From contig CAZIVT010000001.1 in assembly GCA_964543075.1 (NCBI GenBank), forward strand, positions 7,703 through 71,702: a stretch of DNA of 64,000 nt, read 5' to 3'. Below the pieces are notes generated by a model. It made no database searches. It had not been told where the DNA came from and worked only from the letters and a program-made list of their open reading frames with translations. This DNA is from an uncultured Candidatus Saccharibacteria bacterium (GTDB lineage: Bacteria; Patescibacteriota; Minisyncoccia; Phycocordibacterales; PALSA-1337). This document shows, in pieces, positions 1-37,100 of this stretch. Within the stretch, counting starts at the first letter, position 1. Each line of letters starts with the position of its first letter. The translations under genes and the position numbers were made by a program.

Positions 1-98
1 ATCCCACGTGTTGCCGGGTACCGCCCAATCGTTGTGGAGCCACAGACCGTCGTCGCTGCGGTCCAGGTTGAAGACGAACGGGCGGCCGTCGGAGTCGG
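1..98 (-). repeat. DGR variable repeat (VR), in-window part only. It continues beyond position 1.
   Basis: The reverse complement of 1..98 aligns base-for-base with TR 2073..2170. There are 11 differences, all at TR adenines. By my hand count 11 of 28 TR adenines are changed and 0 of about 70 non-adenine positions. TR AAC/AAA/AAT/GAC codons become CGC, TTC, GAC, AGC, CAC, GTA, GGC and GAT in the VR. Confidence 0.85.
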
Positions 99-1791
99 AA
101 ATAGGCTTCATGCCGATGTGGAAATACTCTCCCAGAGGCTGATTGCGGTATTTGAGACGGTAATTGGGACCAGTGTCCGGTGGGCAGAGTTCAAGGCCAA
201 GCTCTTCCGCTCGCTCGAATATTTGGGTGGTAGTCGCGCTTGTCTTGAGACCCAGATCACCAACAGTGAGGCGGATGAGTGTCATCTCCTCGGGGTTCTT
301 TGTTGGAATGAATTCAGCTTTATTCAAGAGCATGCTTCGAGCATAGCTGGAAAGATTGATACTCGCAGCTTCGATTTCGGAGATGAGCTGTTCTGCCGAT
401 TTGCCTCCAACCTCCACATTTTCTCTCCTGATTTTCTTTTCGGGGAACGAAGTATATACGTGTTCCAAAGTCGCCGGAAGTTTTTGGAAAACACCGGGTT
501 CAAGCTGCCCGACATATGCTTTGGTATTTTCGGTTATCTCGCTCGGAACATGGGCTATCTGTTCTTTCGCGCACTCGAAAATCGTAAGCATGTCCTCTTC
601 CGTGTTGCGGCCTGCACGAAGCTCTTCAATACGGGGATCTTTTTCGTACCCGAAACCCTCGATCGTGGAGTTTATTTCATAGAGGAATGTGAGGTCTTCT
701 TTGGTGAAAGGCTCGTCTTTTTCATGCTTGCTTTCGAGAGCGGTGAGGAGGCGCATATCCTCGCTTTTCTTGCGATAAGCATCGGCTTCCACGCCGAATT
801 CGCCGAGCTTCTCGTCCAAGACTTCCTGCATGAGCGGTTCTACGCCCTGATGCGGCAGAATGCCGCGCACTTCGCCGATTCGATCTTTGCCTTCCATGCG
901 TATAGCAAGGCGTGGTTGAGTCGGCTCACCACTTGAATCGTTCGTATAGTAGACATAAAAGTCGCCGGACTCGATCTGAGTTTCGGCCGTTGATTTTCCG
1001 GCAGTGCACCAGCCGGTTCCTTTGCCTTCGAGAGACTCAAATAGTTTTTGTGAAGCTTCGTTGTCTCCTTGTTCATATTTTACCCACTGTCCCTGAATCT
1101 CCTCGCGGTTCTCCATCGAGGCTGCCAGAGATTTTGAAATGAGTTCTGCATAGAGCGTCGGGAATTTCTTGTCGAATTCTCTACGAGCCTCGGAATCCTT
1201 GTTATCGTCCTTAACTCTTTCATAGAGATCGGCGATCTGGGCCAAGGGCTCACGGTAGATATCCGGAAAAGGTGCTACCGTGGAATCGGTGCGCTTCTTA
1301 AACTCGCCGCGTTCCTTGTCGAACTGGGAAAGTTTGATGATTTGATTCCAGGCATAGTACTTGAACCATGTCGGATATACCGCATCCGGCGAAGTGAGAT
1401 ATTCCATCCATGCGTCGAGAGAGTGTCGCTGATCTTCGATTGCCGTCTCCATCATCTGCTCGCGCACATCGGCCGGAATTTCTTCTATATGCTGACCACG
1501 CTCACGGGCGATGCGCTTCTGAAGCTCGAAGTACGAATCGGGAAAATTCTCCTTCTTGATGATGAGCTTGTCGTATATCTTGTCGCGGAACATTTCGAGA
1601 TTTCGCTCCCGCTTGTCTTCGTCGGGATTGAGGAAGATGTTTTCCAGTCGATCCATGTAAGCCTCGATGCGCTCGGTGGGATTATTCGGGATTTTTTCTC
1701 CTTCGAGACGCTCTTTCTTCTCTACGGCAGACTGCACTTCAGGGGAAGTCTGGAGCTCGGGATTTTTCATGTGAAGCGGAAACTTTTCCAT
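1..1791 (-). CDS. DGR target protein (variable protein). Partial: the 3' end with the rest of the VR lies beyond the window start. About 597 aa are visible. No signal peptide, highly charged.
   Basis: The minus-strand ATG at 1791 opens a frame that runs to position 1 without a stop. I verified by hand the segments MEKFPLHMKNPELQTSPEVQSAVEKKERLEGEKIPNN (1791..1681), KDSEARREFDKKFPTLYAEL (1200..1141), FYVYYTNDSSGEPTQPRLAI (960..901) and the C-terminal GEYFHIGMKPISDSDGRPFVFNLDRSDDGLWLHNDWAVPGNTWD (rc of 1..135). The C-terminal codons are the VR cognate of the TR at 2073..2170. The plus-strand ORFs 34..936 and 1342..2022 are its antisense shadows. Confidence 0.8.
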   Translation of the reverse strand, partial: MEKFPLHMKNPELQTSPEVQSAVEKKERLEGEKIPNNPTERIEAYMDRLENIFLNPDEDKRERNLEMFRDKIYDKLIIKKENFPDSYFELQKRIARERGQHIEEIPADVREQMMETAIEDQRHSLDAWMEYLTSPDAVYPTWFKYYAWNQIIKLSQFDKERGEFKKRTDSTVAPFPDIYREPLAQIADLYERVKDDNKDSEARREFDKKFPTLYAELISKSLAASMENREEIQGQWVKYEQGDNEASQKLFESLEGKGTGWCTAGKSTAETQIESGDFYVYYTNDSSGEPTQPRLAIRMEGKDRIGEVRGILPHQGVEPLMQEVLDEKLGEFGVEADAYRKKSEDMRLLTALESKHEKDEPFTKEDLTFLYEINSTIEGFGYEKDPRIEELRAGRNTEEDMLTIFECAKEQIAHVPSEITENTKAYVGQLEPGVFQKLPATLEHVYTSFPEKKIRRENVEVGGKSAEQLISEIEAASINLSSYARSMLLNKAEFIPTKNPEEMTLIRLTVGDLGLKTSATTTQIFERAEELGLELCPPDTGPNYRLKYRNQPLGEYFHIGMKPISDSDGRPFVFNLDRSDDGLWLHNDWAVPGNTWD

Positions 1792-2072
1792 GGGCAAATT
1801 GTAGCAAAAATCGCATATTTTGGCTATAATTTTGCCGAATCGGTTGCATTGAACGGCTCCGGCTTTTCAAGACCCTTTCGGCTCATGCGGATTGAGAGTT
1901 CGTCCGGCTCCGGCTTGACGGAGAGGATTCGCATGGAAGTCAAAATAAAGAAAATACTTGGTGCGGCGCGTTCGCTGATTCTCGATCACGCATACAATTC
2001 AGTCCGGTCTTTTGCCCACTGAACTTCAGGAAGCATCAGATGGACGGTGGCATGGATGACGCGTCGCACGAA

Positions 2073-2200
2073 CCGACTCCGACGGCAACCCGAACGTCTT
2101 CAACCTGAACCGCAACGACGACGGTCTGTGGCTCAACAACGATTGGGCGAAACCCGACAACACGTGGAATCCGGACAACAAGTTCGTATTCCGTCTCCGA
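2073..2200 (+). repeat. DGR template repeat (TR). The 3' boundary is uncertain: at least 2170, probably about 2200.
   Basis: Sequence ccgactccgacggcAACccgAACgtcttcAACctgAACcgcAACgacgacggtctgtggctcAACAACgattgggcgAAAcccgacAACacgtggAAtccggacAACAAgttc. It is AAC-rich in the same codon frame as the VR, and identical to the VR except at adenines. It lies upstream of the RT on the same strand. It is followed at 2225..2247 by a perfect 14-bp palindrome agtaacatgttact plus a ttactag direct repeat. Confidence 0.85.
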
Positions 2201-2243
2201 AACTGTTTTCTTTTTCCGCGATCCAGTAACATGTTACTAGTTA

Positions 2244-2648
2244 CTAGCGGTCGCGGTTTTTCTTGTCCGGATTTTCAAGGCCTTTCTTCCATCCGTAAAA
2301 CATCTTACCTGACTCCTCAAGCTTCCGCGCCACATCTTCACACTGTTTGTTGGTGACAAGCTTGCCCTCCCAAGCTACGGCGACCAGAAACTTGAGCGTG
2401 TCGAGGACAAAAATGCATTCGGCGATCTTTTCCGCTTTCTTTTCTTTTTCGGTAAAATACGCCACATAGGACAGCTCGAGCAAATCGAGAAATTTATTTT
2501 CTATCCGAGCTCCGATGGTATATCGAGCGCCTTTGGAAATATGCGGAACAATATTAACCCACAACAAATATCCCTCTTTGACTCGCTGGAGAATCGAGGC
2601 GTTATCGAGAGAGAGAGAGAGAGAGAGAGTAGAATGCGGCCGCGTCAT
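2244..2648 (-). CDS. avd: Avd-like accessory protein (four-helix-bundle / 23S rRNA IVS family), divergent to the RT. Start codon uncertain: ATG 2657 or 2648, or a downstream non-ATG.
   Basis: The translation ...ILQRVKEGYLLWVNIVPHISKGARYTIGARIENKFLDLLELSYVAYFTEKEKKAEKIAECIFVLDTLKFLVAVAWEGKLVTNKQCEDVARKLEESGKMFYGWKKGL fits the IVS / four-helix-bundle pattern (W..helix, xPK.E.Y.L..Q.RR, then ...GKML.GL) that the Bordetella phage Avd belongs to. It is about 130 aa and basic, and sits between the TR and the RT. The stop TAG is at 2244..2246. Confidence 0.6.
   Translation of the reverse strand: MTRPHSTLSLSLSLDNASILQRVKEGYLLWVNIVPHISKGARYTIGARIENKFLDLLELSYVAYFTEKEKKAEKIAECIFVLDTLKFLVAVAWEGKLVTNKQCEDVARKLEESGKMFYGWKKGLENPDKKNRDR
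2609..2632. repeat. (GA)11-12 dinucleotide microsatellite in the divergent avd/RT 5' overlap.
   Basis: gagagagagagagagagagagag at 2609..2631. It encodes ERERERE in the RT frame and SLSLSLSL in the avd frame. Confidence 0.9.
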
Positions 2649-3623
2649 ATCTACCATAATATCATCTCCGTTGATAACTTGCTCTCGGCGTGGCGCGAGT
2701 TTCTGAAAAATAAGCGCGGCCGCAAAGATGTTAAGGAATTTTCGCTACGTCTCATGGACAACATCCTTGCTCTTAATAGCGATCTTGTAGATAAAACATA
2801 CCGGCATGGCGGTTATACTGCGTTTCGGATCAACGACCCGAAGCCGCGCGACATTCACAAGGCGACAGTGCGCGATCGGCTCCTGCATCACGCTATGTAT
2901 CGAATCCTGTATCCATATTTTGATCCGAAATTCATTTTTGATTCATATTCCTGTCGTCGCGTCAAAGGCACGCATCGGGCACTGAACCGTTTTCGCGACC
3001 ATGCACGCTCGGTCTCCCGTAACAACACACGCACGATTTGGATTTTGAAATGCGACATACGAAAATTTTTCGCCAATATAGATCATGAAATTCTGGGCAA
3101 GATTTTGAAAAAATATATTAGAAGTGGCAATACGATCTTACTTCTAAGCAAGGTCGTCAGGAGTTTCCATATTGAGGGCAGGCCAGGCGTCGGTCTGCCG
3201 CTTGGCAATCTCACGAGCCAGCTTTTGGTGAACGTATACATGAACGAATTTGATCACTTTCTCAAGCGCGAATTGAAGGTCGAACATTGCGTCAGATATG
3301 CAGACGATTTTGTCATATTGCACGAGAATAGGAAGCATCTGGAAAATTTGCTTCCTCTGATTTCCGAATTTCTTGAGACCCGATTGAAACTGTCTCTACA
3401 TCCCGATAAGGTATTCATAAAGACGTGGTCGTCCGGCGTTGATTTTCTCGGATGGGTACATTTTCCACATCATCGTGTGCCGCGCACTTCGACCAAAAGA
3501 CGAATGTTTAGAAATCTCGAAGCAAATTCAAAAGAAGAATCTCTTTCATCATATCGTGGACTTTTGAAGCATGGCGATACATACAAATTGAGGAAGATGT
3601 TGGATAGATATAATCGACATTAA
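2634..3623 (+). CDS. DGR reverse transcriptase. The probable start is ATG 2634; the ORF is open from 2541.
   Basis: N-terminus ...ISVDNLLSAWREFLKNKRGRKDVKEFSLRLMDNILALNSDLVDKTYRHGGYTAFRINDPKPRDIHKATVRDRLLHHAMYRILYPYFDPKFIFDSYSCRRVKGTHRAL... Motif 4 is GVGLPLGNLTSQLLVNVYM, carrying the DGR-type [ILV]GxxxSQ in place of the group II intron QGxxxSP. Motif 5 is VRYADDFVIL. It is colinear with Bordetella phage bRT (GVGIPIGSLTSQLFANVY ... RYMDDIVVL). Confidence 0.9.
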   Translation: MRPRHIYHNIISVDNLLSAWREFLKNKRGRKDVKEFSLRLMDNILALNSDLVDKTYRHGGYTAFRINDPKPRDIHKATVRDRLLHHAMYRILYPYFDPKFIFDSYSCRRVKGTHRALNRFRDHARSVSRNNTRTIWILKCDIRKFFANIDHEILGKILKKYIRSGNTILLLSKVVRSFHIEGRPGVGLPLGNLTSQLLVNVYMNEFDHFLKRELKVEHCVRYADDFVILHENRKHLENLLPLISEFLETRLKLSLHPDKVFIKTWSSGVDFLGWVHFPHHRVPRTSTKRRMFRNLEANSKEESLSSYRGLLKHGDTYKLRKMLDRYNRH

Positions 3624-3665
3624 GAGGTCTAGACATCCTCGGTGATCAGCGTCATCCATTAGGGT

Positions 3666-3995
3666 GTGATAAAGGATGATGATATTGAAGCGATCATAGA
3701 TGCGAGCAAGCATTTCAAATACCACGAGCCGACAGGTTCTACTCCCTTTAACCGTATCTCCAAATTGCCCGAATCCAAGAAGGATTTGAAGATGGCAATC
3801 AAGGAGCGCATCCGACTGCTCGTTGCCTCATACATCTCGCTCGCTTCCTTTATTGATGACGACCTCGTCGATTTTCTCGAGAGTGATGAAGTGCAGGTGC
3901 GTAAAGGTAAGGTGATACGGATATATAACAGAGTATTCAAAGATTTTGAGAAACTAAGAAAGGAAATTCAAAATTTTAACCCATTCGAGCCATGA
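3666..3995 (+). CDS. Hypothetical protein (109 aa) between the DGR RT and the recombinase.
   Basis: An intact ORF on the same strand as the RT and integrase, with an acidic N-terminus and a basic C-terminus. No recognisable family. Confidence 0.4.
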   Translation: MIKDDDIEAIIDASKHFKYHEPTGSTPFNRISKLPESKKDLKMAIKERIRLLVASYISLASFIDDDLVDFLESDEVQVRKGKVIRIYNRVFKDFEKLRKEIQNFNPFEP

Positions 3996-4129: not shown

Positions 4130-5452
4130 ATGCAACAAATACAAGCGCCTGGAGGAGTGACGGCCAAACCAGCAAGCCCCGTAAAGGTAAAATACTGCCT
4201 GTATGCCAGAAAAAGCACCGAATCCGAGGAACGCCAAGTCCTTTCAATCGACAGCCAGATAAGCGAGATGTTGAAACTGGCTGAAAGAGAAGGTCTTGAG
4301 ATAGTATCCATGAAACGAGAGAGTCATTCTGCCAAAGAGACAGGACAACGACCTATTTTTAACGAGATCGTCGATGAGATAAAGGCAAAAAAGTTCAATG
4401 GAATACTGACATGGGCACCGGATCGTATTAGTCGTAATGCAGGCGATCTCGGCAAAGTCATCGATCTCATGGATGCCAATATCCTTCAGGACATTCGCAC
4501 GTACGGTCAAAGATTCACGAATAGTCCGAATGACAAGTTTATGCTTATGATCCTCTGCTCACAAGCAAAACTGGAGAACGACAACCGAGGTATCAACGTA
4601 AAGCGAGGACTTCGAACACGAGTCGAGATGGGACTCTGGCCTGGAATGGCACCCTTGGGATATCTCAATCAGAAGCTCATGGACAAGAAATGCCAACTGG
4701 CGATCGATCCAGCGAGAGCGCCAGTCATAAAGAAAATATTCGAGAAGGTGGCATACGAGCAGTGGAGTGGAAGGAAGGTATACAACTGGCTTAGGTTCGA
4801 GCTCAACTTCCATACGAGGGGTAATAGACCGCTTACGTTAAGTGGCGTATACAAAATCCTGGACAACCCCATATATTACGGCCCCTTCGAATTCCCAAAG
4901 AAAAGCGGCAACTGGTATCAAGGCAAGCATACACCCATAGTGGATCAGGAATTGTTCGAGAAAGCACAAGCTCACCTGAAGCGTGACCAAATTGTAAGAG
5001 AAACCAAGGAATTCTCCTTCACCAAGCTCTTCACCTGCGGATATTGTGGATCGGGTATATCCGCCGAGGAGAAGTGGAAACAGCTCAAGGCAGGCGGATC
5101 AAACAGATACATATACTACTCCTGCTCCAGAGCAAAGGATAGAAATTGTAAGAACAAATACATACGTGAAGAAGATCTGATTACGGAGCTTCTCAAAATA
5201 TTGGACAAGGTAAATCTGAATGAGCTCGGTATGCGGCAGAGATTGGAGGATGAAATTGCGAGATTCAATATCTTCCAGAGATCAGTCCTTGGCACCAAAG
5301 ACAAAGTTGAGGCAAGAAGCGATACTGATATCAGAAACTATGCGAAGTATATTCTCAAGGAAGGAACAGCGAATGAGAAGCGGGAGTTACTGGCGAATCT
5401 CAGAAGCAGGATCATATATAAGGACAAGACACTCACACTCGTAGAAGAATGA
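4130..5452 (+). CDS. Large serine recombinase (integrase).
   Basis: The N-terminal resolvase-type catalytic domain (VKYCLYARKSTESEERQVLSIDSQ...) is followed by a recombinase domain and a Cys-rich zinc-ribbon region (FTCGYCGSGISAEE...YYSCSRAKDRNCKNKYIRE). At 440 aa it matches phage and ICE large serine integrases. It sits next to the tRNA-Ser 3' end. Confidence 0.85.
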   Translation: MQQIQAPGGVTAKPASPVKVKYCLYARKSTESEERQVLSIDSQISEMLKLAEREGLEIVSMKRESHSAKETGQRPIFNEIVDEIKAKKFNGILTWAPDRISRNAGDLGKVIDLMDANILQDIRTYGQRFTNSPNDKFMLMILCSQAKLENDNRGINVKRGLRTRVEMGLWPGMAPLGYLNQKLMDKKCQLAIDPARAPVIKKIFEKVAYEQWSGRKVYNWLRFELNFHTRGNRPLTLSGVYKILDNPIYYGPFEFPKKSGNWYQGKHTPIVDQELFEKAQAHLKRDQIVRETKEFSFTKLFTCGYCGSGISAEEKWKQLKAGGSNRYIYYSCSRAKDRNCKNKYIREEDLITELLKILDKVNLNELGMRQRLEDEIARFNIFQRSVLGTKDKVEARSDTDIRNYAKYILKEGTANEKRELLANLRSRIIYKDKTLTLVEE

Positions 5453-5563: not shown

Positions 5564-5650
5564 CGGAGAGGAAGGGATTCGAACCCTTGATGCCCTTTCG
5601 GACATACGGCCTTTCCAGGGCCGCCCATTCGACCGCTCTGGCACCTCTCC
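5564..5650 (-). tRNA. tRNA-Ser (anticodon GGA).
   Basis: The reverse complement GGAGAGGTGCCAGAGCGGTCGAATGGGCGGCCCTGGAAAGGCCGTATGTCCGAAAGGGCATCAAGGGTTCGAATCCCTTCCTCTCCG folds as follows. Acceptor GGAGAGG/CCTCTCC. A 3-bp D-stem. Anticodon stem CGGCC/GGCCG with loop CTGGAAA (anticodon GGA). A long class II variable arm. T-arm AAGGG-TTCGAAT-CCCTT. Discriminator G. CCA is not encoded. Confidence 0.9.
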
Positions 5651-6808: not shown

Positions 6809-7366
6809 TTATATCAACTCCACCTTGGGTGCATTCTTCGCTCCCGTCTGGGCCTCGAAATACTCGATCTGATCGAAGCCGAACATAGAAGCAAAGACAT
6901 TTCGCGGGAAGCGCTTGATGGACGTGTTGTAGGCACGCACAGAATCATTGAAGCGGGTACGTTCTACACTAATCCTGTTCTCGGCACCCTCGAGCTGAGT
7001 CATGAGATCGCGAACCGTATCAGTCGAGCGGAGCGTCGGATAGTTCTCTATGACCGCCAAGAGGCGTCCGAGAGCAGTCTCGACCTGTCCGGCAGCAACG
7101 GCCTTTTCTGAAACTCCTTGTGCTCCAGCATAGCGAGTACGAGCCTCGGCGATAGCAGAAAACACCTCCTGCTCTTGATTCATGGCTCCCTTGACTGACT
7201 CCACGAGGTTGGGGATCAGGTCAAAGCGACGCTGATACTGGGTCTCTACCTGCTGCCACTGAGCGGTCGCCGCCTCATTCATGGTCACAAGGCTGTTGTA
7301 CGATGACCAGCCATAGAGTGCTAGTATGGCAATGAGCAGTATGATGACGATGAGGATCTTTTTCAT
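6809..7366 (-). CDS. LemA family protein.
   Basis: An N-terminal TM helix is followed by LemA motifs (QWQQVETQYQRRFDLIPNLVESVKG...TRFNDSVRAYNTSIKRFPRNVFASMFGF). Confidence 0.9.
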   Translation of the reverse strand: MKKILIVIILLIAILALYGWSSYNSLVTMNEAATAQWQQVETQYQRRFDLIPNLVESVKGAMNQEQEVFSAIAEARTRYAGAQGVSEKAVAAGQVETALGRLLAVIENYPTLRSTDTVRDLMTQLEGAENRISVERTRFNDSVRAYNTSIKRFPRNVFASMFGFDQIEYFEAQTGAKNAPKVELI

Positions 7367-7465: not shown

Positions 7466-8131
7466 TTAATTTGCCTTGGGTGCCTGTGTCTCATCTTTAC
7501 CTTGAGGACCTACGACAAAAGCGAAGCTCTTGACCATTTCTATGAAGTCAGTATCAGCAGAATTGACGATGGCTTTGTTGTTATTCTGAGCTTGGATGAT
7601 GTTCGAACCTGTGAGACCCTTACTTGCCGGATCAAGTGTGATAGACGAGAACGTGAAGAAGTAGCAGAGGCTGTCCTTCTGGAGAGAATACATGCGGTTG
7701 AAATAGTTGCGTCCCTGGATGGTATTGGACATGGAGATCGTATTCATAGTCTCTGCGCCCACCTGCAGGCTCCCACGATCCTTGACCGTGGTCACTGGCG
7801 GGAATTGGCACTTGCCGGAAAAGACGTTGATATCCGCCTGAAGCTTGCCCAAAGTCGAAACCTGATCCTTGTCGATGGGCACGAGGAACGTCACACCCAA
7901 ATCAGCCTCTGCCTTCTCCCATCCAGTAGGATACTGGACAGAGAAACCGAGCTCGGCATTTTGGTATTCAGATAGCTGACTAGATATCTTGGTGGTCTCG
8001 CTGACCTTTACTGGCTCATCACCATCTTCAGAATCTCTGTTGGATCCTGGAAAATCGACGTTGTTCTTGACATACGTGACACCGAGGACGATGAGTACGA
8101 TCACGATAACTATGAGTATGAGTTTTTTCAT
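7466..8131 (-). CDS. Hypothetical membrane-anchored protein (221 aa).
   Basis: An N-terminal TM anchor is followed by an extracytoplasmic domain. No family recognised. Confidence 0.55.
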   Translation of the reverse strand: MKKLILIVIVIVLIVLGVTYVKNNVDFPGSNRDSEDGDEPVKVSETTKISSQLSEYQNAELGFSVQYPTGWEKAEADLGVTFLVPIDKDQVSTLGKLQADINVFSGKCQFPPVTTVKDRGSLQVGAETMNTISMSNTIQGRNYFNRMYSLQKDSLCYFFTFSSITLDPASKGLTGSNIIQAQNNNKAIVNSADTDFIEMVKSFAFVVGPQGKDETQAPKAN

Positions 8132-31100: not shown

Positions 31101-34100
31101 ATTGAACAACGTAGTCGTCGCAGATGCGGTAGTTGATGATATTCTGAACAAATTAGTGTAGGCCTCTCCGTCATTGCCATAGAAATGGAATTTTGATGTC
31201 GGATTGATCCCTGTTATACACCCAGCACACAAAGCAGTATTGCCGATCAGTCTTGCATAATAATTTGGACTAGTTCCATCGATTTGTAGACCACCCGAAA
31301 GAGTCGAGGTTGATAACGGTTGACTATTCGTTATCCAACCTGCCCTGAACGGAAGACGCGAAGAAGTAGTTTGGACCAATCCCTCAATCGCATACGGATT
31401 GTACGAAAACGCATGGTTCGACTCATCTCCAAGCCATACTGACAACGGTTGGCCATAGTTCATGTAATTGCGATACAACAGCTGTCCTGAAGAATCGAGG
31501 ATTGTGAGGCCAAAATCAGAAGATACGCGCGAGTTATCCGCTGTCGAATTCATAAATCTGACGATAGGGCCGGTTGTATTTGTAAAATGAGAACCTTTAA
31601 GGTTGAGATCCGTAACCGCAGCATTGACTTTGATGGCACCGTCAGACGGCACATTTTGCGTCCACAGGTTTTCGACGTCGATGTTATATATCGTCGTCTC
31701 TATCGGTGTATATTGCGATTCATCATGACCAATCTGGATAACTGAACTCGTCCCTGTCGTGCCTGAATATGCGGTGCCTGTATTTTCGATATGACCTCCG
31801 AGTTTTACCGTATTCGTCCCCTGACCACCGATAAGGTACACAATGCGATTGGACGCTCCTGTCATGTAAAATTCTGCAACCGTTGTATTGTTGTTGCGAT
31901 TCTCACTTGCGAGCTCAATACAGATATCGTTTGAGTTACACCTGCCATCAAGAAACCATGAATCAGCCTTATATCCACCAGCAAATCCACGGCGGTTATT
32001 ATAGAAGGCTACGTTGCGACCTTCTACATATGTGATAGACGACAATGACGTCGTGCCTGTCTTCATCGCCGCATCTCCCCAATATTGGAACATCACATTA
32101 TCGATCGAGATGTTTCCTGTCGGGTTTGGAGTAGTCTCAATCCACCAACCAGTCGTATTATCATTTGTGACGGGAGATCCTGTCGATGGTCCAACGATAG
32201 CGATATCTTTGAATGAAGCGAGGCCTTTCAGAAATACGCCTGTACCTGTGTATTTCCACTGAGAATTCCTATTTCCAAGAACCAGTCCTCCGCGCACACC
32301 AAGTGTTGCGTTGTCACAGAATGTTGTAAATTCATGTGACCCGCTATCTCTATACGTTCCAGACGGAAAGTAGAGAATCCCGCATGAATCAGCAAAATCA
32401 GAGAATGCGCTGGCAATTGCGGCGGTATCATCAGAAACACCATCTCCAACTGCGCCATAATCTTTGACATTGAATACTTCAAGTGAAGTACTTGCGAGAT
32501 CAGCGAACGTCGGCAGGCCGAGCGAGCTGGTAGCCGTGAGCGCATACCCTCCTGAGGCATTGCCGAGGAGGATCTGGCCATATGACGGAGCTGAGGTGAG
32601 GCCAGTTCCTCCGTAGAGGACGCCGATCGATGAGGTCGCAGAGACGACACCTCCGTTGGCTTGGAGCGGGCCGTTGAGGGAGCCGATAGTGAGGGTGGAA
32701 TTGAAGGCGGCCGATCCACCGAACGTGTTGGAGCCATTGAAAGCCTGGGTACCAGTGAATGTGTTGCTGGCATACGTCTTGGGGATGGTGGATGAGGCGC
32801 TGATGTAGCTGTTCACCAGGGCGTTGGAGTAGTAGAGGTTGGAGGAGCCCTGAGTGAGGCCATCAGTAGTAGTGGCATACCAAGAAGTTTGTGTGAGGTA
32901 TGTTGCGGCAGCCGATGCAGAGGTTAGATACAAAGAGAGGTCAGTGAACGTTGGCATCCCCAGCGAGCTGGTAGCTACCCACTGTGTGCCTGATCCGGTG
33001 GATTGGAGGATGGAACCGAGAGAGCCGGCTGAAGTTGAGCCATCATAGAGCTGGCCTGAGACCCGGAGGTTGGTAGCGAGGAGGTTGGGTAGCGTGGAAG
33101 TCGCTGAAGTCGATGTCGCGGTGAAGTAATCGGCTCTGACGTCTTGGTTGAATACTCCCCTGCCGTCGACAGAGAGCTTGGCATACGGAGACGTGGTGCC
33201 GATGCCGACGTTGCCGCCCATGAAGTTGGCGACGACGGGATTGGCCTGCGTCGTCGAGGCGACGAAGGCGGAGATCGTGCCGCGGGAGAAGATGCCGGAG
33301 ATGCCCGCAGTGAGACCACCCTGGGCATAGATGTCGCCGCCAATGAGAACATTGTTCCTGACACTGACGGTGCCCGCCTCTACGGATCCGGCATATGTAG
33401 ACGGCGTCTTGAATCCATCGATGCGCGCGATCTTGAGGCCAGACGACCCTGCCGTCAGATAGGCATATGTGCCCGATACGAAGCTCCTCGTCGAGACAGT
33501 CGTCAATGTCCCGACCAGCGATGGTGCCGATGGTCGAGAGACGTCGACGACTACGAACTGCTGATTGCCGGGCTCTGCGTTGTTCATATACGCATAGTCT
33601 CCAAAGACGCGTATGCTCGATGATATGTAGTCTGCCCCACTCGTATATGAGCCGACTAGCGATGGAGACACGGGATTTGATACATCGATGATCAACATCC
33701 CTGATCCGAATCCATCCGCCAGATATGCATACCTGTCAGACACATACACTGCCGTAGCTGTACCAGCGCTGTTGTACGTCCCTACCAACACCGGTGACAC
33801 CGGATTGGAGATATCGACGATTTGCAGACCTCCGGTATCATCAGCGACATAAGCATACGGTCCGACGACATACACGGCATTAGCGAATCCGCTGGTGTCA
33901 TACGAGCCCGTCGTCCGTGGCGCGCGCGGATCGGAGATATCGATGACTGATATGCCTGATCCTCCTGTAGCCACATAGAGGAACTTGCCCGACGGATAGA
34001 TGCCGTAGGCGTTGATCGAGGTCACTGTCCCTACGACAGCGGGAGATGCAGGATTGGAGACATCGATGATCCTGATCCTGAAGTTGGCGGAATCCCAGAC

Positions 34101-37100
34101 GTATAGATAGTCGGCGGATCCGGTGATAGTGGTGGCTGTGCCGGAGATATCATACGTCTTGACCAGAGTCGGAGCTCGCGGATCTGACACATCGAGGATC
34201 TGTATGCCTGACGTGCCATCTGCCACATATCCATACGTGCCGGATACGAAGACGTCTACGGAGCTTCCTGATGTATCGTACGATCCGACCAACGTGGGCG
34301 ATCCTACAGCACTATGGACGATGCTTCCCCCGGCTATAGCGAGCTTTGTCGTAGTCGTAGCAGTTGTGGTACCGATCAGGACTGCTCCTCCACTCGTCGC
34401 GAGATACGCGCTCGCGGATGATGTGAGCGCGGTCGTGGAGGCATAGGGGAATGTCGACGCTGTCGTCGAGGTCGCGGTGAAGTAAGATGCTCGCGTCTCT
34501 CCCGTGGAGAGGATCGTCAATTTGGCTGAGTCTGAAGGGCCGATCATGGTAGAGTTCGCGATCGCATTGGTGATACCTGATCCGAATACAGAAGCGCCTC
34601 CGGCGGAAACTACGTTGTTGTAGCCGAACGCGGACGATGCGTTGCCAGAAGCGGTATTCAATCTTCCGAATGCGGATGTCTCTACGTTTGAAGCAGTGTT
34701 GTTGGTTCCGAAAGCGGATGAGGAATTGGCTGACGCGGTGTTGCTATAACCGAAGGCGGAAGATACCGAGAGACCACTCGCCACATTGAGCGCTCCGACA
34801 GTGATCGCGGCTGATACTCCGGAAGCTCTGTTGTCGTAGCCCAACGCGACGGCAGAGTTGCCTGACGCAACATTGGCGGATGACGATCTCCCGCTTTGAA
34901 TATCGATGGAGTCAGAACCGCGCGCGTTGCCAGTGACATCTCCGGCGACTACGGAACCATTGGAGCGAGCTATGTCGAGGGCTCCGGCGATGGATACATC
35001 ATAGGCAAAGGTCGATGTCGCTGAAGTGGATGTGGACGTGATGTAATTGACGGTCGGAGATGTAGATGCCGCCAAAGCTGACGTGCCCCCAGGCGAGTAC
35101 ACCCAGCCTTGTCCAAATGAGCTACCCCCTGTCCCACCCTGAGATACATCGAGCGTCCCTGAGATGGATGAGAAAGCGATCCCCAGCGAGCTGGTAGCTA
35201 CCCACTGTGTGCCTGATCCGGTGGATTGGAGGATGGAACCGAGAGAGCCGGCTGAAGTTGAGCCATCATAGAGCTGGCCTGAGACCCGGAGGTTGGTAGC
35301 GAGGAGGTTGGGTAGCGTGGAAGTCGCTGAAGTCGATGTCGCGGTGAAGTAATCGGCTCTGACGTCTTGGTTGAATACTCCCCTGCCGTCGACAGAGAGC
35401 TTGGCATACGGAGACGTGGTGCCGATGCCGACGTTGCCTGCGATGAGGGTGCCACTATAGTCCGACAACGTACCATTTCCTACAGCGAGCACTCCTGCGC
35501 CATATCTGGAGAGTCCAACATCAGGTGAACCATCATAGTAGTGGCTGCCACTCCTCCACGCCTGGAGATACCCACTGCCCATATACATAATGTTTCCATT
35601 CGATGCTGATATGTCTATCCCGGATTGCCCCAATCTAACCCCATTACCTGTAAAGACACCGAATTGATTCAAATTACCTGAACCGACAACAACACTGCCT
35701 GCCGTGGTTATGTTCCCCGCAACATACGCATTCCCCGTCGTCGTCGCATTACCCGAGATGGTGAGACCTCCGGTGGTGCTCCCGTCACCGATGGTGGTCG
35801 AGGCATATGAGGTCAGGCCTCCAGTGAATGAGAGCGCAGTGGAGGTGGCGTTGGAGGGGAATGGGTATGCGAACGAGGCATAGCTCCCAAGATCAGCGAA
35901 CGTCGGCAGGCCGAGGGACGAGGTGGCCGTGAGCGCGTATCCTCCCGAGGCATTACCGAGGAGAAGCTGTCCATATGTGGGAGCGGAGGTGATACCGGTT
36001 CCCCCGTAGAGGACACCGACGGAAGAGGTAGCGGAGACGACGCCGTTGTTAGCCTGCAACGGGCCATTCAGGGAGCCGACAGTGAGGGTGGAATTGAAAG
36101 CGGCCGATCCACCGAACGTGTTGGAGCCATTGAAAGCCTGGGTACCAGTGAATGTGTTGCTGGCATACGTCTTGGGGATGGTGGATGAGGCGCTGATGTA
36201 GCTGTTCACCAGGGCGTTGGAGTAGTAGAGGTTGGAGGAGCCTTGGGAGAGATCGTCAGTGGTCTTGGTGGTGAACCAGTAGTCGGTCGAGGTAGTAGCC
36301 CAGCGAGAGACCGTGGAATCCCAATACACGGCAGAGGTCGTCGAGAAGGAGTTGGCGAGGTAGTAGCTGCCCTCCTGGCCATCCAGGGTGCCTGTCCAAT
36401 CACCGGCCGTCGAGAGCGAGATGATATTGTTGGAGATAGAAAGCGGAGACGTAGCTGAGGTGATGCGATTCTGGTAGGAAGAGTTCCATTCCGTCGTCGA
36501 AGCGACAAGCGGTATGACATACCCTGTCGTGGTCGAGAGGACGCCGGTCGAGGAATTGTATGAGAGACCGACGACGTCCTCGGAGATGGCTGCGCGGGCA
36601 CGAGCGTCAGTGTAGTAGAGATTGGATCCTTCGGCGATATTGGTGGTGAGCAGGCCCAAGGATGAGGTAGCGAGCTGCTGCCATCCGCCGCCAGCATATG
36701 ATCCGAGCAAAATACCGGCCGCTGACGGACTGGAGATACCCGTACCTCCCCCACCAGCAGAAAGCGTGCCGGATATCGTAGCAGGAGCGAAGGTGAAGGT
36801 GGAGCCTGAGTTGGTGATGCCGTTCGAGATGGTGAGACCATTCCATGAAGCAGCCGAGGAAGTAGCGAAGGTGAGCGCGCCGGTCTGAGCGGAGCCGTAT
36901 GTCTGTTGGAGCGATGTTACAAACGCTGATGACGTGGCGATCTGATAGAGCGTGCCACTATTGGCGCCGATGAGGCCAGAGAGAGATCCGAGGACAGGGG
37001 CATTGGCGAAAGAGTTCGAGCCGCTCCAGGTGTTGTTGTCGGAGAGGATGGTAGATGAAGCAGTCGATATGGTGATCGAATCGCCCGCATTGAAGGCCGT

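Follow-up and report, generated by a model that had tools for sequence, protein, structure and literature searches.

Diversity-generating retroelements (DGRs) rewrite part of a target gene by copying a template repeat (TR) into a variable repeat (VR), and the locus described here raises the question of whether such rewriting can be switched on and off by a simple repeat. The window, i.e., the whole stretch of 64,000 nucleotides analysed, comes from an uncultured Candidatus Saccharibacteria bacterium (GenBank assembly GCA_964543075.1, contig CAZIVT010000001.1, positions 7,703 to 71,702 of the forward strand). Near its left end lies a DGR in which avd and the reverse transcriptase (RT) gene are divergent, with a GA microsatellite at their junction. 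The initial annotation of this DNA proposed that slippage in the microsatellite might be a phase-variable switch for diversification, acting on avd; our comparisons with related loci lend partial support to this proposal and would extend it to both genes. The reading that accounts best for these comparisons, and that we hold to be somewhat probable, is that the tract serves as a heritable phase switch for the whole DGR. The broader claim is that this extends across nearly the whole DGR clade of the candidate phyla radiation (CPR; Patescibacteria), such that a repeat within a 36-codon dual-coding antisense overlap would switch both proteins, and hypermutation itself, heritably and reversibly; we regard this claim as evenly poised.

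The repeat reads (GA)11G in plus-strand letters and spans positions 2607..2629 (23 nt, 100% pure). It is real, as annotated, and lies 2 nt to the left of the interval first assigned to it (2609..2631). It sits between the minus-strand avd gene and the plus-strand RT gene, downstream of the plus-strand TR, and is the sole dinucleotide microsatellite of the window; GA runs of 12 nt are expected 0.04 times by chance and were found here alone. The 5′ ends of avd and RT do overlap at this point and, as had been predicted, the tract encodes an SLSL-type stretch in Avd's N-terminal tail, as part of the translated sequence. The Avd frame reads the tract as (LS)n and the long RT open reading frame (ORF) reads it as (ER)n, and its length in the window places it in frame for both genes.

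We searched for relatives with the protein sequence of the Avd ORF, which returned approximately 950 close homologues, mostly from Patescibacteria. Many of these open with an (SL)n stretch of differing length after unrelated N-terminal residues, and others have been called from downstream starts. A total of 80 species-level genome loci and 80 metagenome loci were fetched, the metagenome relatives being collected by a protein-guided contig scan, and 150 of the loci could be analysed. A scan of metagenome contigs with exact flank patterns for strain variants gave no match, and a scan of viral contigs found no relatives.

A simple repeat was present at exactly the avd/RT junction in 149 of the 150 analysable loci, which span many CPR lineages. 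Read in the avd sense, 109 of the repeats are (CT)n tracts of 9–43 nt (median 21) and 32 are poly-C tracts of 6–18 nt; six composites of a C-run with (CT)n, two poly-G tracts and one locus without a repeat make up the rest. In every version, one strand is all purine and the other all pyrimidine. The (CT)n tracts stand directly ahead of the conserved Avd codons D/G-x-A-S-I-L, and the poly-C version is read as Pro-n in Avd and Gly-n in RT. Across 852 kb of related loci, 152 of 179 such repeats were located at the junction and only about 15 short ones elsewhere. That a single position is occupied by three repeat types speaks for selection acting on mutability rather than on sequence.

Comparing tract length over related loci, as the initial annotation had suggested, showed it to be hypervariable between close relatives. 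Four contigs from different samples, with identical Avd core and flanks, carry tracts of 25, 25, 15, and 21 nt, and the tracts of L103, L106, and L107 (17, 19, and 15 nt) represent all three reading phases. Poly-C strain sets differ likewise (14/12/11, 9/8/9/9, and 10/9), as does a poly-G pair (G13 and G9); overall, length was variable within five of 18 strain clusters. Independent assemblies of one strain agree with one another: the window's own strain has the single length of 23 nt in all three of its assemblies (the window, L001, and L162), L001 being a contig of this strain from another read set, and a length of 24 nt recurs four times in another cluster. Such reproducibility indicates that the lengths are not assembly noise. 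It also bears on the suggestion that the tract is a functionless, slippage-prone remnant or an artefact of assembly. The statistically random phase described below fits this suggestion, which is nevertheless strongly disfavoured by the persistence of the repeat, pure in every case and of three sequence types, over very divergent lineages, by the agreement of independent assemblies, and by the near absence of such repeats elsewhere in the same loci.

Selective constraints around the tract can be seen in the start codons on either side of it. An avd ATG located 16–21 nt before the tract is nearly universal among the relatives, and the frame from this ATG to the tract is open in all 131 loci compared. 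In the window this start is ATG 2648, which gives an avd gene of 134 aa (2244..2648, minus strand). Two starts had initially been considered, and of these 2648 is conserved in the family; the second in-frame ATG, at 2657 (ORF 2244..2657, 137 aa), occurs in a minority of relatives only. Whether avd is read in frame with its start codon depends on the phase of the tract, as had been anticipated. On the opposite strand, the long RT ORF (2541..3623, plus strand, 360 aa) begins at a conserved ATG at 2541, approximately 66 nt before the tract in the RT sense, and continues through the repeat. The two reading frames overlap by 108 nt (2541..2648, both strands), codon-aligned in antisense, with the repeat inside.

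Each of these start codons is the antisense of a histidine codon in the opposing gene. ATG 2648 faces the RT His5 codon, for which 105 lineages use CAT and one uses CAC, compared with 523 CAT and 348 CAC at other conserved histidine codons of the same RTs. ATG 2541 faces the Avd His39 codon, with CAT found in 120 lineages against a single CAC. We also examined, between the equivalent of ATG 2541 and the tract, those avd codons whose reverse complements are stops (TTA, CTA, and TCA). Leucine was encoded by TTA or CTA at 0 of 297 positions in the overlap versus 307 of 1459 in the remaining avd sequence (p = 6e-28), and serine by TCA at 0 of 238 versus 140 of 587 (p = 2e-23). Combined, the three codons are used at 0 of 535 positions, and the antisense (RT-strand) frame in the overlap is open in 121 of 121 lineages. 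At the level of codon usage, these biases demonstrate selection on the antisense starts and on the open frame between them. We conclude from the codon patterns that the configuration under selection comprises two ORFs placed head to head, with a codon-for-codon antisense overlap of 108 nt and the repeat within it.

The initial annotation also allowed that avd might start downstream of the tract, and the codons in this interval speak against it. Between the tract and the Avd core, no in-frame stop and no ATG, GTG, or TTG was found in any locus, and the A-S-I codons located there differ mainly at their third positions; together these features indicate that avd is translated from beyond the tract. 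Specific downstream candidates, namely a TTG at Leu31/32 with AGAGGG upstream and an ATT at Ile22, were rejected because the A-S-I-L codons are coding-like and contain no stops. Gene callers choose such downstream avd starts in out-of-frame loci only. The same interval is informative for a different possibility, that the tract is not translated and serves as a regulatory element within a divergent control region common to both genes, acting through promoter spacing (as other divergent phase-variable promoters do), through homopurine/homopyrimidine DNA structure, or as an RNA element. Although the composition of the tract and the divergence of avd and RT would both suit such a role, we consider it very unlikely, given that the coding signatures of avd reach the tract with no start intervening before the core, that both conserved ATGs lie beyond the tract, and that lengths ranging from 6 to 43 nt are incompatible with a fixed promoter spacer.

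The position of the RT start determines whether one gene or two would be affected. Slippage had originally been thought to leave untouched an RT that starts at an internal ATG 4 nt past the repeat (2634..2636, plus strand), and this ATG is indeed a possible repeat-independent start in the window. An equivalent ATG just after the tract is present in 28 of 131 related loci and absent in 103. Because most relatives lack it and the frame from ATG 2541 is under selection, slippage would shift RT as well; the idea of an unaffected RT is probably wrong for the family, and an effect on avd alone is possible in this element. Consistent with a shared frame, loci in the in-frame phase had an in-frame RT ATG in 34 of 34 cases, and in the other two phases the RT frame had no start codon in 25 of 97 loci and only GTG or TTG in 41 of 97.

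A switch of avd only would thus require that, in this element, RT is made from ATG 2634 regardless of tract length and that the long frame from 2541 goes unused here. ATG 2634 lies 12 codons before the conserved N-terminal motif of RT, has a purine-rich tract ahead of it, and is kept in the closest relatives (L163–L168), and the frequency of a post-tract ATG among the related loci is far above that of random methionines. However, the antisense ATG 2541 and the stop-free antisense frame are kept in all lineages, including those with the nearby ATG, and it is this nearby ATG that most loci lack. We therefore judge an avd-only switch unlikely. Among relatives in phase +1 (e.g., L164, in which RT is called at 2923..3981), many keep a TTG in the RT frame approximately 29 nt before the tract. 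In this phase the TTG might give RT without Avd, making a three-state switch, or it might be a by-product of the Avd Ile-Lys codons.

These observations suggest how a switch of the whole DGR could operate. Avd would be translated from ATG 2648 and RT from ATG 2541, with the use of both starts deduced from their conservation, and the repeat amid the overlap would supply Avd with a disordered linker, (LS)n, and RT with an (ER)n linker. Slippage during replication would alter the tract in steps of 2 nt, or of 1 nt where it is poly-C or poly-G. Of the three length classes, one would bring both proteins into frame (ON), and the other two would truncate both (OFF). The repeat would in this way act as a heritable and reversible contingency switch over the entire process of mutagenic retrohoming; by this switch, a lineage could diversify its target protein for a time and then freeze a variant. 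This mechanism presumes frequent, reversible switching within clones and a DGR that is inactive when OFF. The single repeat-less locus, L036, from a metagenome-assembled genome labelled Candidatus Saccharibacteria (CAYQEU010000001), has no repeat at the junction, approximately 100 nt upstream of its avd core. Its avd and RT ORFs are both continuous and in frame across the junction, and judging from these ORFs it is a natural locked-ON version.

To describe the phases of the family, we counted 105 non-redundant lineages with the conserved avd ATG. The tract was in frame in 27 of these (26%), and 38 and 40 lineages fell into the two shifted phases. Out-of-frame loci retain intact avd and RT ORFs, with medians of 115 and 331 aa that equal those of in-frame loci, and their VRs carry 12–27 adenine-site changes. 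Intact ORFs together with diversified VRs show that the shifted loci are not decaying pseudogenes. Such a distribution of phases is how a fast, reversible contingency locus looks in consensus assemblies.

Several points nevertheless weigh against a heritable switch of both genes. The in-frame share of 26% does not differ from one third (p = 0.12), so the assemblies give no sign that ON is favoured, and the same pattern is equally expected if phase is irrelevant, e.g., if slippage by the polymerase or the ribosome supplies the in-frame product. Slippage of RNA polymerase or the ribosome on the tract could yield some in-frame product from any genotype. The RT ATG just after the tract, in the 28 loci that include the window, could free RT from the switch, and the TTG available in one out-of-frame phase means that the switch may not be strictly two-state. 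Judged by eye, the Shine-Dalgarno-like sequences that precede ATG 2541 and ATG 2648 are weak, and a promoter scan gave a number of sites not above the shuffled expectation, none of them convincing. In addition, some strain clusters possibly consist of one assembly deposited twice.

The main rivals are the avd-only switch through ATG 2634 in this element, weighed above, and slippage at the level of expression, which would make the tract a dimmer rather than a switch. In the latter case, both genes would be translated through the tract, and RNA polymerase or ribosome slippage would give every genotype a small in-frame fraction, keeping Avd and RT scarce. This would accommodate phases near one third each and out-of-frame loci that are fully intact with diversified VRs, and a shift of 2 nt on a dinucleotide repeat would, from the sequence, restore the identical codon. 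It leaves unexplained, however, why the three repeat types are all long and pure and why the repeat-less L036 is exactly in frame; furthermore, length differences are directly seen in the DNA of near-identical strains. To our knowledge, efficient transcriptional slippage on dinucleotide repeats is not established. We consider this explanation improbable.

Differences in the VR between near-identical strains provide a further line of evidence for the heritable switch. The window and L001 are identical over the 6775 nt compared except for eight positions, all of which are TR-adenine sites in the VR (window 9..69). These differences are consistent with recent retrohoming and continuing diversification in the sampled population, and the element is apparently active. 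Among strain clusters with an in-frame member, three further comparisons showed VR differences with identical neighbouring sequence, and two clusters showed none. Among the six clusters with only out-of-frame members, VR differences were found in 0 of 6. This pattern fits the switch model and is suggestive only, given the small numbers and the chance that some pairs were deposited in duplicate. A VR difference recorded for L018 within its cluster was discarded as artefactual: what had been taken for the VR was another, identical copy of the TR region. The activity of the Patescibacteria DGR clade has been reported to be below average (Roux et al., 2021; PMC8144416).

L018 contains a second C14 tract at approximately 7326 and a second copy of the TR region at 7718..8047 (330 nt, 100% identical), and L086 and L087, from one metagenome, have identical DGR junctions on two separate contigs. 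These duplications suggest that the cassettes are duplicated or mobile.

The anatomy of the element is evident from the window itself, of which positions 1..3623 contain the complete DGR minus the last few codons of the target gene. The translated target gene (1..1791, minus strand) encodes 604 aa in full, with its seven C-terminal codons and the end of the VR located to the left of the window; a Pfam search of its product gave no match. The full gene is visible in L001, where the VR ends 12 codons before the stop. In the window, the VR (1..98, minus strand) is cut by the edge and forms an inverted repeat with 2073..2170 at 89% identity. All 11 mismatches between TR and VR fall at plus-strand TR adenines, and further ones occur in the full VR of L001. 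The TR (2073..2202, plus strand, RT sense) is the sole other VR-like copy within the window. In related loci, a repeat of this TR/VR kind begins 16–38 nt past the avd stop in 111 of 137 cases, and 2148 of 2349 TR/VR mismatches (91%) are at A on the RT-sense strand; at least 80% of the mismatches are at RT-sense A in 103 of 111 related loci, where the layout is the same. Approximately 75 nt past the VR end, L001 has a short GC-rich inverted repeat, GCGGC-GCA-GCCGC (about 6884..6896). It may correspond to the hairpin found after the initiation-of-mutagenic-homing sequence (IMH, at the VR end) in other DGRs.

The RT ORF matches RVT_1 with 83.8 bits, and its translation shows the motifs LGNLTSQ and YADD. 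We take LGNLTSQ to be the diagnostic DGR-type motif 4 ([ILV]GxxxSQ), alongside the YxDD catalytic motif. The minus-strand ORF was initially described as Avd-like with a four-helix bundle, and this identification is upheld. Avd scores 44.4 bits against Pfam PF22296 bAvd (cutoff 40) and 54 bits against NCBIfam DivGenRetAVD, which is below the cutoff of 80; position 2 of the latter model aligns at Avd residue 21, right behind the SLSLSL stretch. AlphaFold predicts a four-helix bundle with helices at residues 22–39, 42–68, 71–97, and 103–128 and a predicted local distance difference test (pLDDT) score of 83. Residues 1–18 are disordered in the model, and the tract falls in this tail, where pLDDT is below 50. 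A profile search of Avd against the sequences of the Protein Data Bank gave no match, whereas a Foldseek search with the model matched the Avd of Bordetella phage (4DWL; template modelling score 0.85–0.88, root-mean-square deviation 1.5 Å) and also the bRT-Avd particle 8UB7.

With the adenine pattern of TR and VR, the RT motifs, a VR at the 3′ end of the target gene, and Avd all present, the element is by its sequence a complete CPR-type DGR, in the order target/VR, TR, reversed avd, RT. Upstream of avd, which is on the reverse strand and is followed by RT, comes the TR, as in the TR-(avd)-RT arrangement termed architecture B3, which makes up 90% of the CPR DGR set of Wu et al. (2018; PMC5758913). 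The layout had been considered unusual; it is non-canonical only relative to that of the Bordetella phage.

The TR is directly followed by a GC-rich hairpin (2216..2256, plus strand), which overlaps the last avd codons, and then by the T-run TTTTTCTT (2257..2264). The structure is terminator-like in the TR/RT sense and straddles the avd stop (2244..2246). Its conservation was assessed by folding each sequence individually, anchored on the T-run. The segment before the T-run, which takes the form T5CT2-4, folds to a hairpin with its 3′ end paired in 125 of 135 related loci, and 82 distinct hairpin sequences with compensatory stem changes were found among L002–L161. RNAalifold applied to the post-TR region missed the hairpin because loop lengths differ. 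The hairpin has the appearance of an intrinsic terminator that would end the TR transcript, or it could instead be a structural module within the DGR RNA. Under either reading, the premise of a TR-RT co-transcript that crosses avd in antisense is weakened, and the earlier view that any such co-transcript necessarily does so is doubtful. From the positions of the starts, the RT mRNA probably begins inside avd, in antisense, and the avd mRNA inside RT. A weak promoter-like site, TTAACA-16-TATTTT (2707..2734, minus strand), is located upstream of the avd start within the RT coding region.

An ORF of 109 aa without family match directly follows RT (3666..3995, plus strand); a 109-aa gene near the DGR is also called in L162 and L164, with a different orientation in L164. 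Just downstream of RT is a large serine recombinase with Resolvase, Recombinase, and Zn-ribbon domains (4130..5452, plus strand), adjoined by a tRNA gene (5564..5650, minus strand), and L001 contains DUF87/TraG-like genes on the other flank of the target gene. The recombinase, the tRNA gene, and the DUF87/TraG-like genes imply that the DGR may sit on an integrative, possibly conjugative, element. An Rfam scan of the whole window returned a tRNA only. Farther away, two identical tandem arrays of the 16-nt unit GGAGGTTGGGTAGCGA occur 2.2 kb apart (33065..33098 and 35288..35321; 2.2 copies each).

Among known systems, the closest are the B3 CPR DGRs, or Patescibacteria 'DGR clade 2', in which TR, reversed avd, and RT are ordered and oriented in the same way (PMC5758913; PMC8144416). 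They also share with the window element the host group, a cellular rather than viral context, and adenine-specific TR/VR differences. The DGR papers covered by the analysis make no mention of a junction repeat, an antisense start overlap, or a terminator-like hairpin after the TR (PMC5758913; PMC8144416). The DGR of Bordetella phage BPP-1 has the same Avd fold, the same LGNLTSQ and YADD motifs in RT, and adenine-specific mutagenesis from a TR to a C-terminal VR. BPP-1 has avd, TR, and brt in a colinear arrangement, with the spacer that follows the TR in one RNA with brt. In contrast, the window element has an inverted avd whose overlap with RT is head to head and contains the repeat, and a terminator-like hairpin follows its TR.

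The repeat itself resembles simple-repeat contingency loci, of which the poly-G tracts in reading frames of Campylobacter jejuni are an example (PMC4965091). As in the contingency loci of C. jejuni, Neisseria, and Haemophilus, a pure repeat lies near the start, its lengths shift the frame, and near-identical strains differ; at the junction, the sequences show a pure slippable tract within an ORF, length polymorphism, and frame shifts relative to the presumed starts. In the known cases a single gene is switched, in most instances one that encodes a surface or restriction-modification protein. Here, by contrast, one tract lies in two genes on opposite strands, would gate a mutagenesis machine, occurs in CPR bacteria, and is conserved across a family of elements. 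In Haemophilus influenzae, a (TA)n repeat in the overlapping divergent promoters of hifA and hifB works through −10/−35 spacing. That case likewise has one repeat for two divergent genes; in the present element, the evidence points instead to the translation frame and an antisense coding overlap. A full-text literature search on DGRs together with phase variation, simple repeats, slippage, homopolymers, or frameshifts yielded nothing relevant; Paul et al. (2017) fell outside its coverage, and a prior mention there is possible. The junction repeat appears to be unreported. Each of the components (DGRs, the B3 layout, and phase variation through repeats) is known, and it is their combination, i.e., a dual-coding repeat that would gate both DGR proteins clade-wide, that appears to be new.

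DGRs are the most extreme natural systems of protein diversification known, and how they are regulated and how good variants are protected from further change are largely open questions. If the tract is indeed a switch for Avd and RT, both of them essential to the DGR, it would offer the very large CPR radiation a simple answer at the level of the population: most cells would keep their variant, and a changing minority would diversify. One local mutator would then control another, which could account both for the fixation of useful variants and for the lower apparent activity of this DGR clade in metagenomes. It would also represent an unusual genome design, in which a single repeat serves two genes on opposite strands within exact antisense dual coding. 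CPR DGRs that have been scored as "RT truncated" or "inactive" may then be in the OFF phase, and repeat length could provide a cheap metagenomic readout of DGR state.

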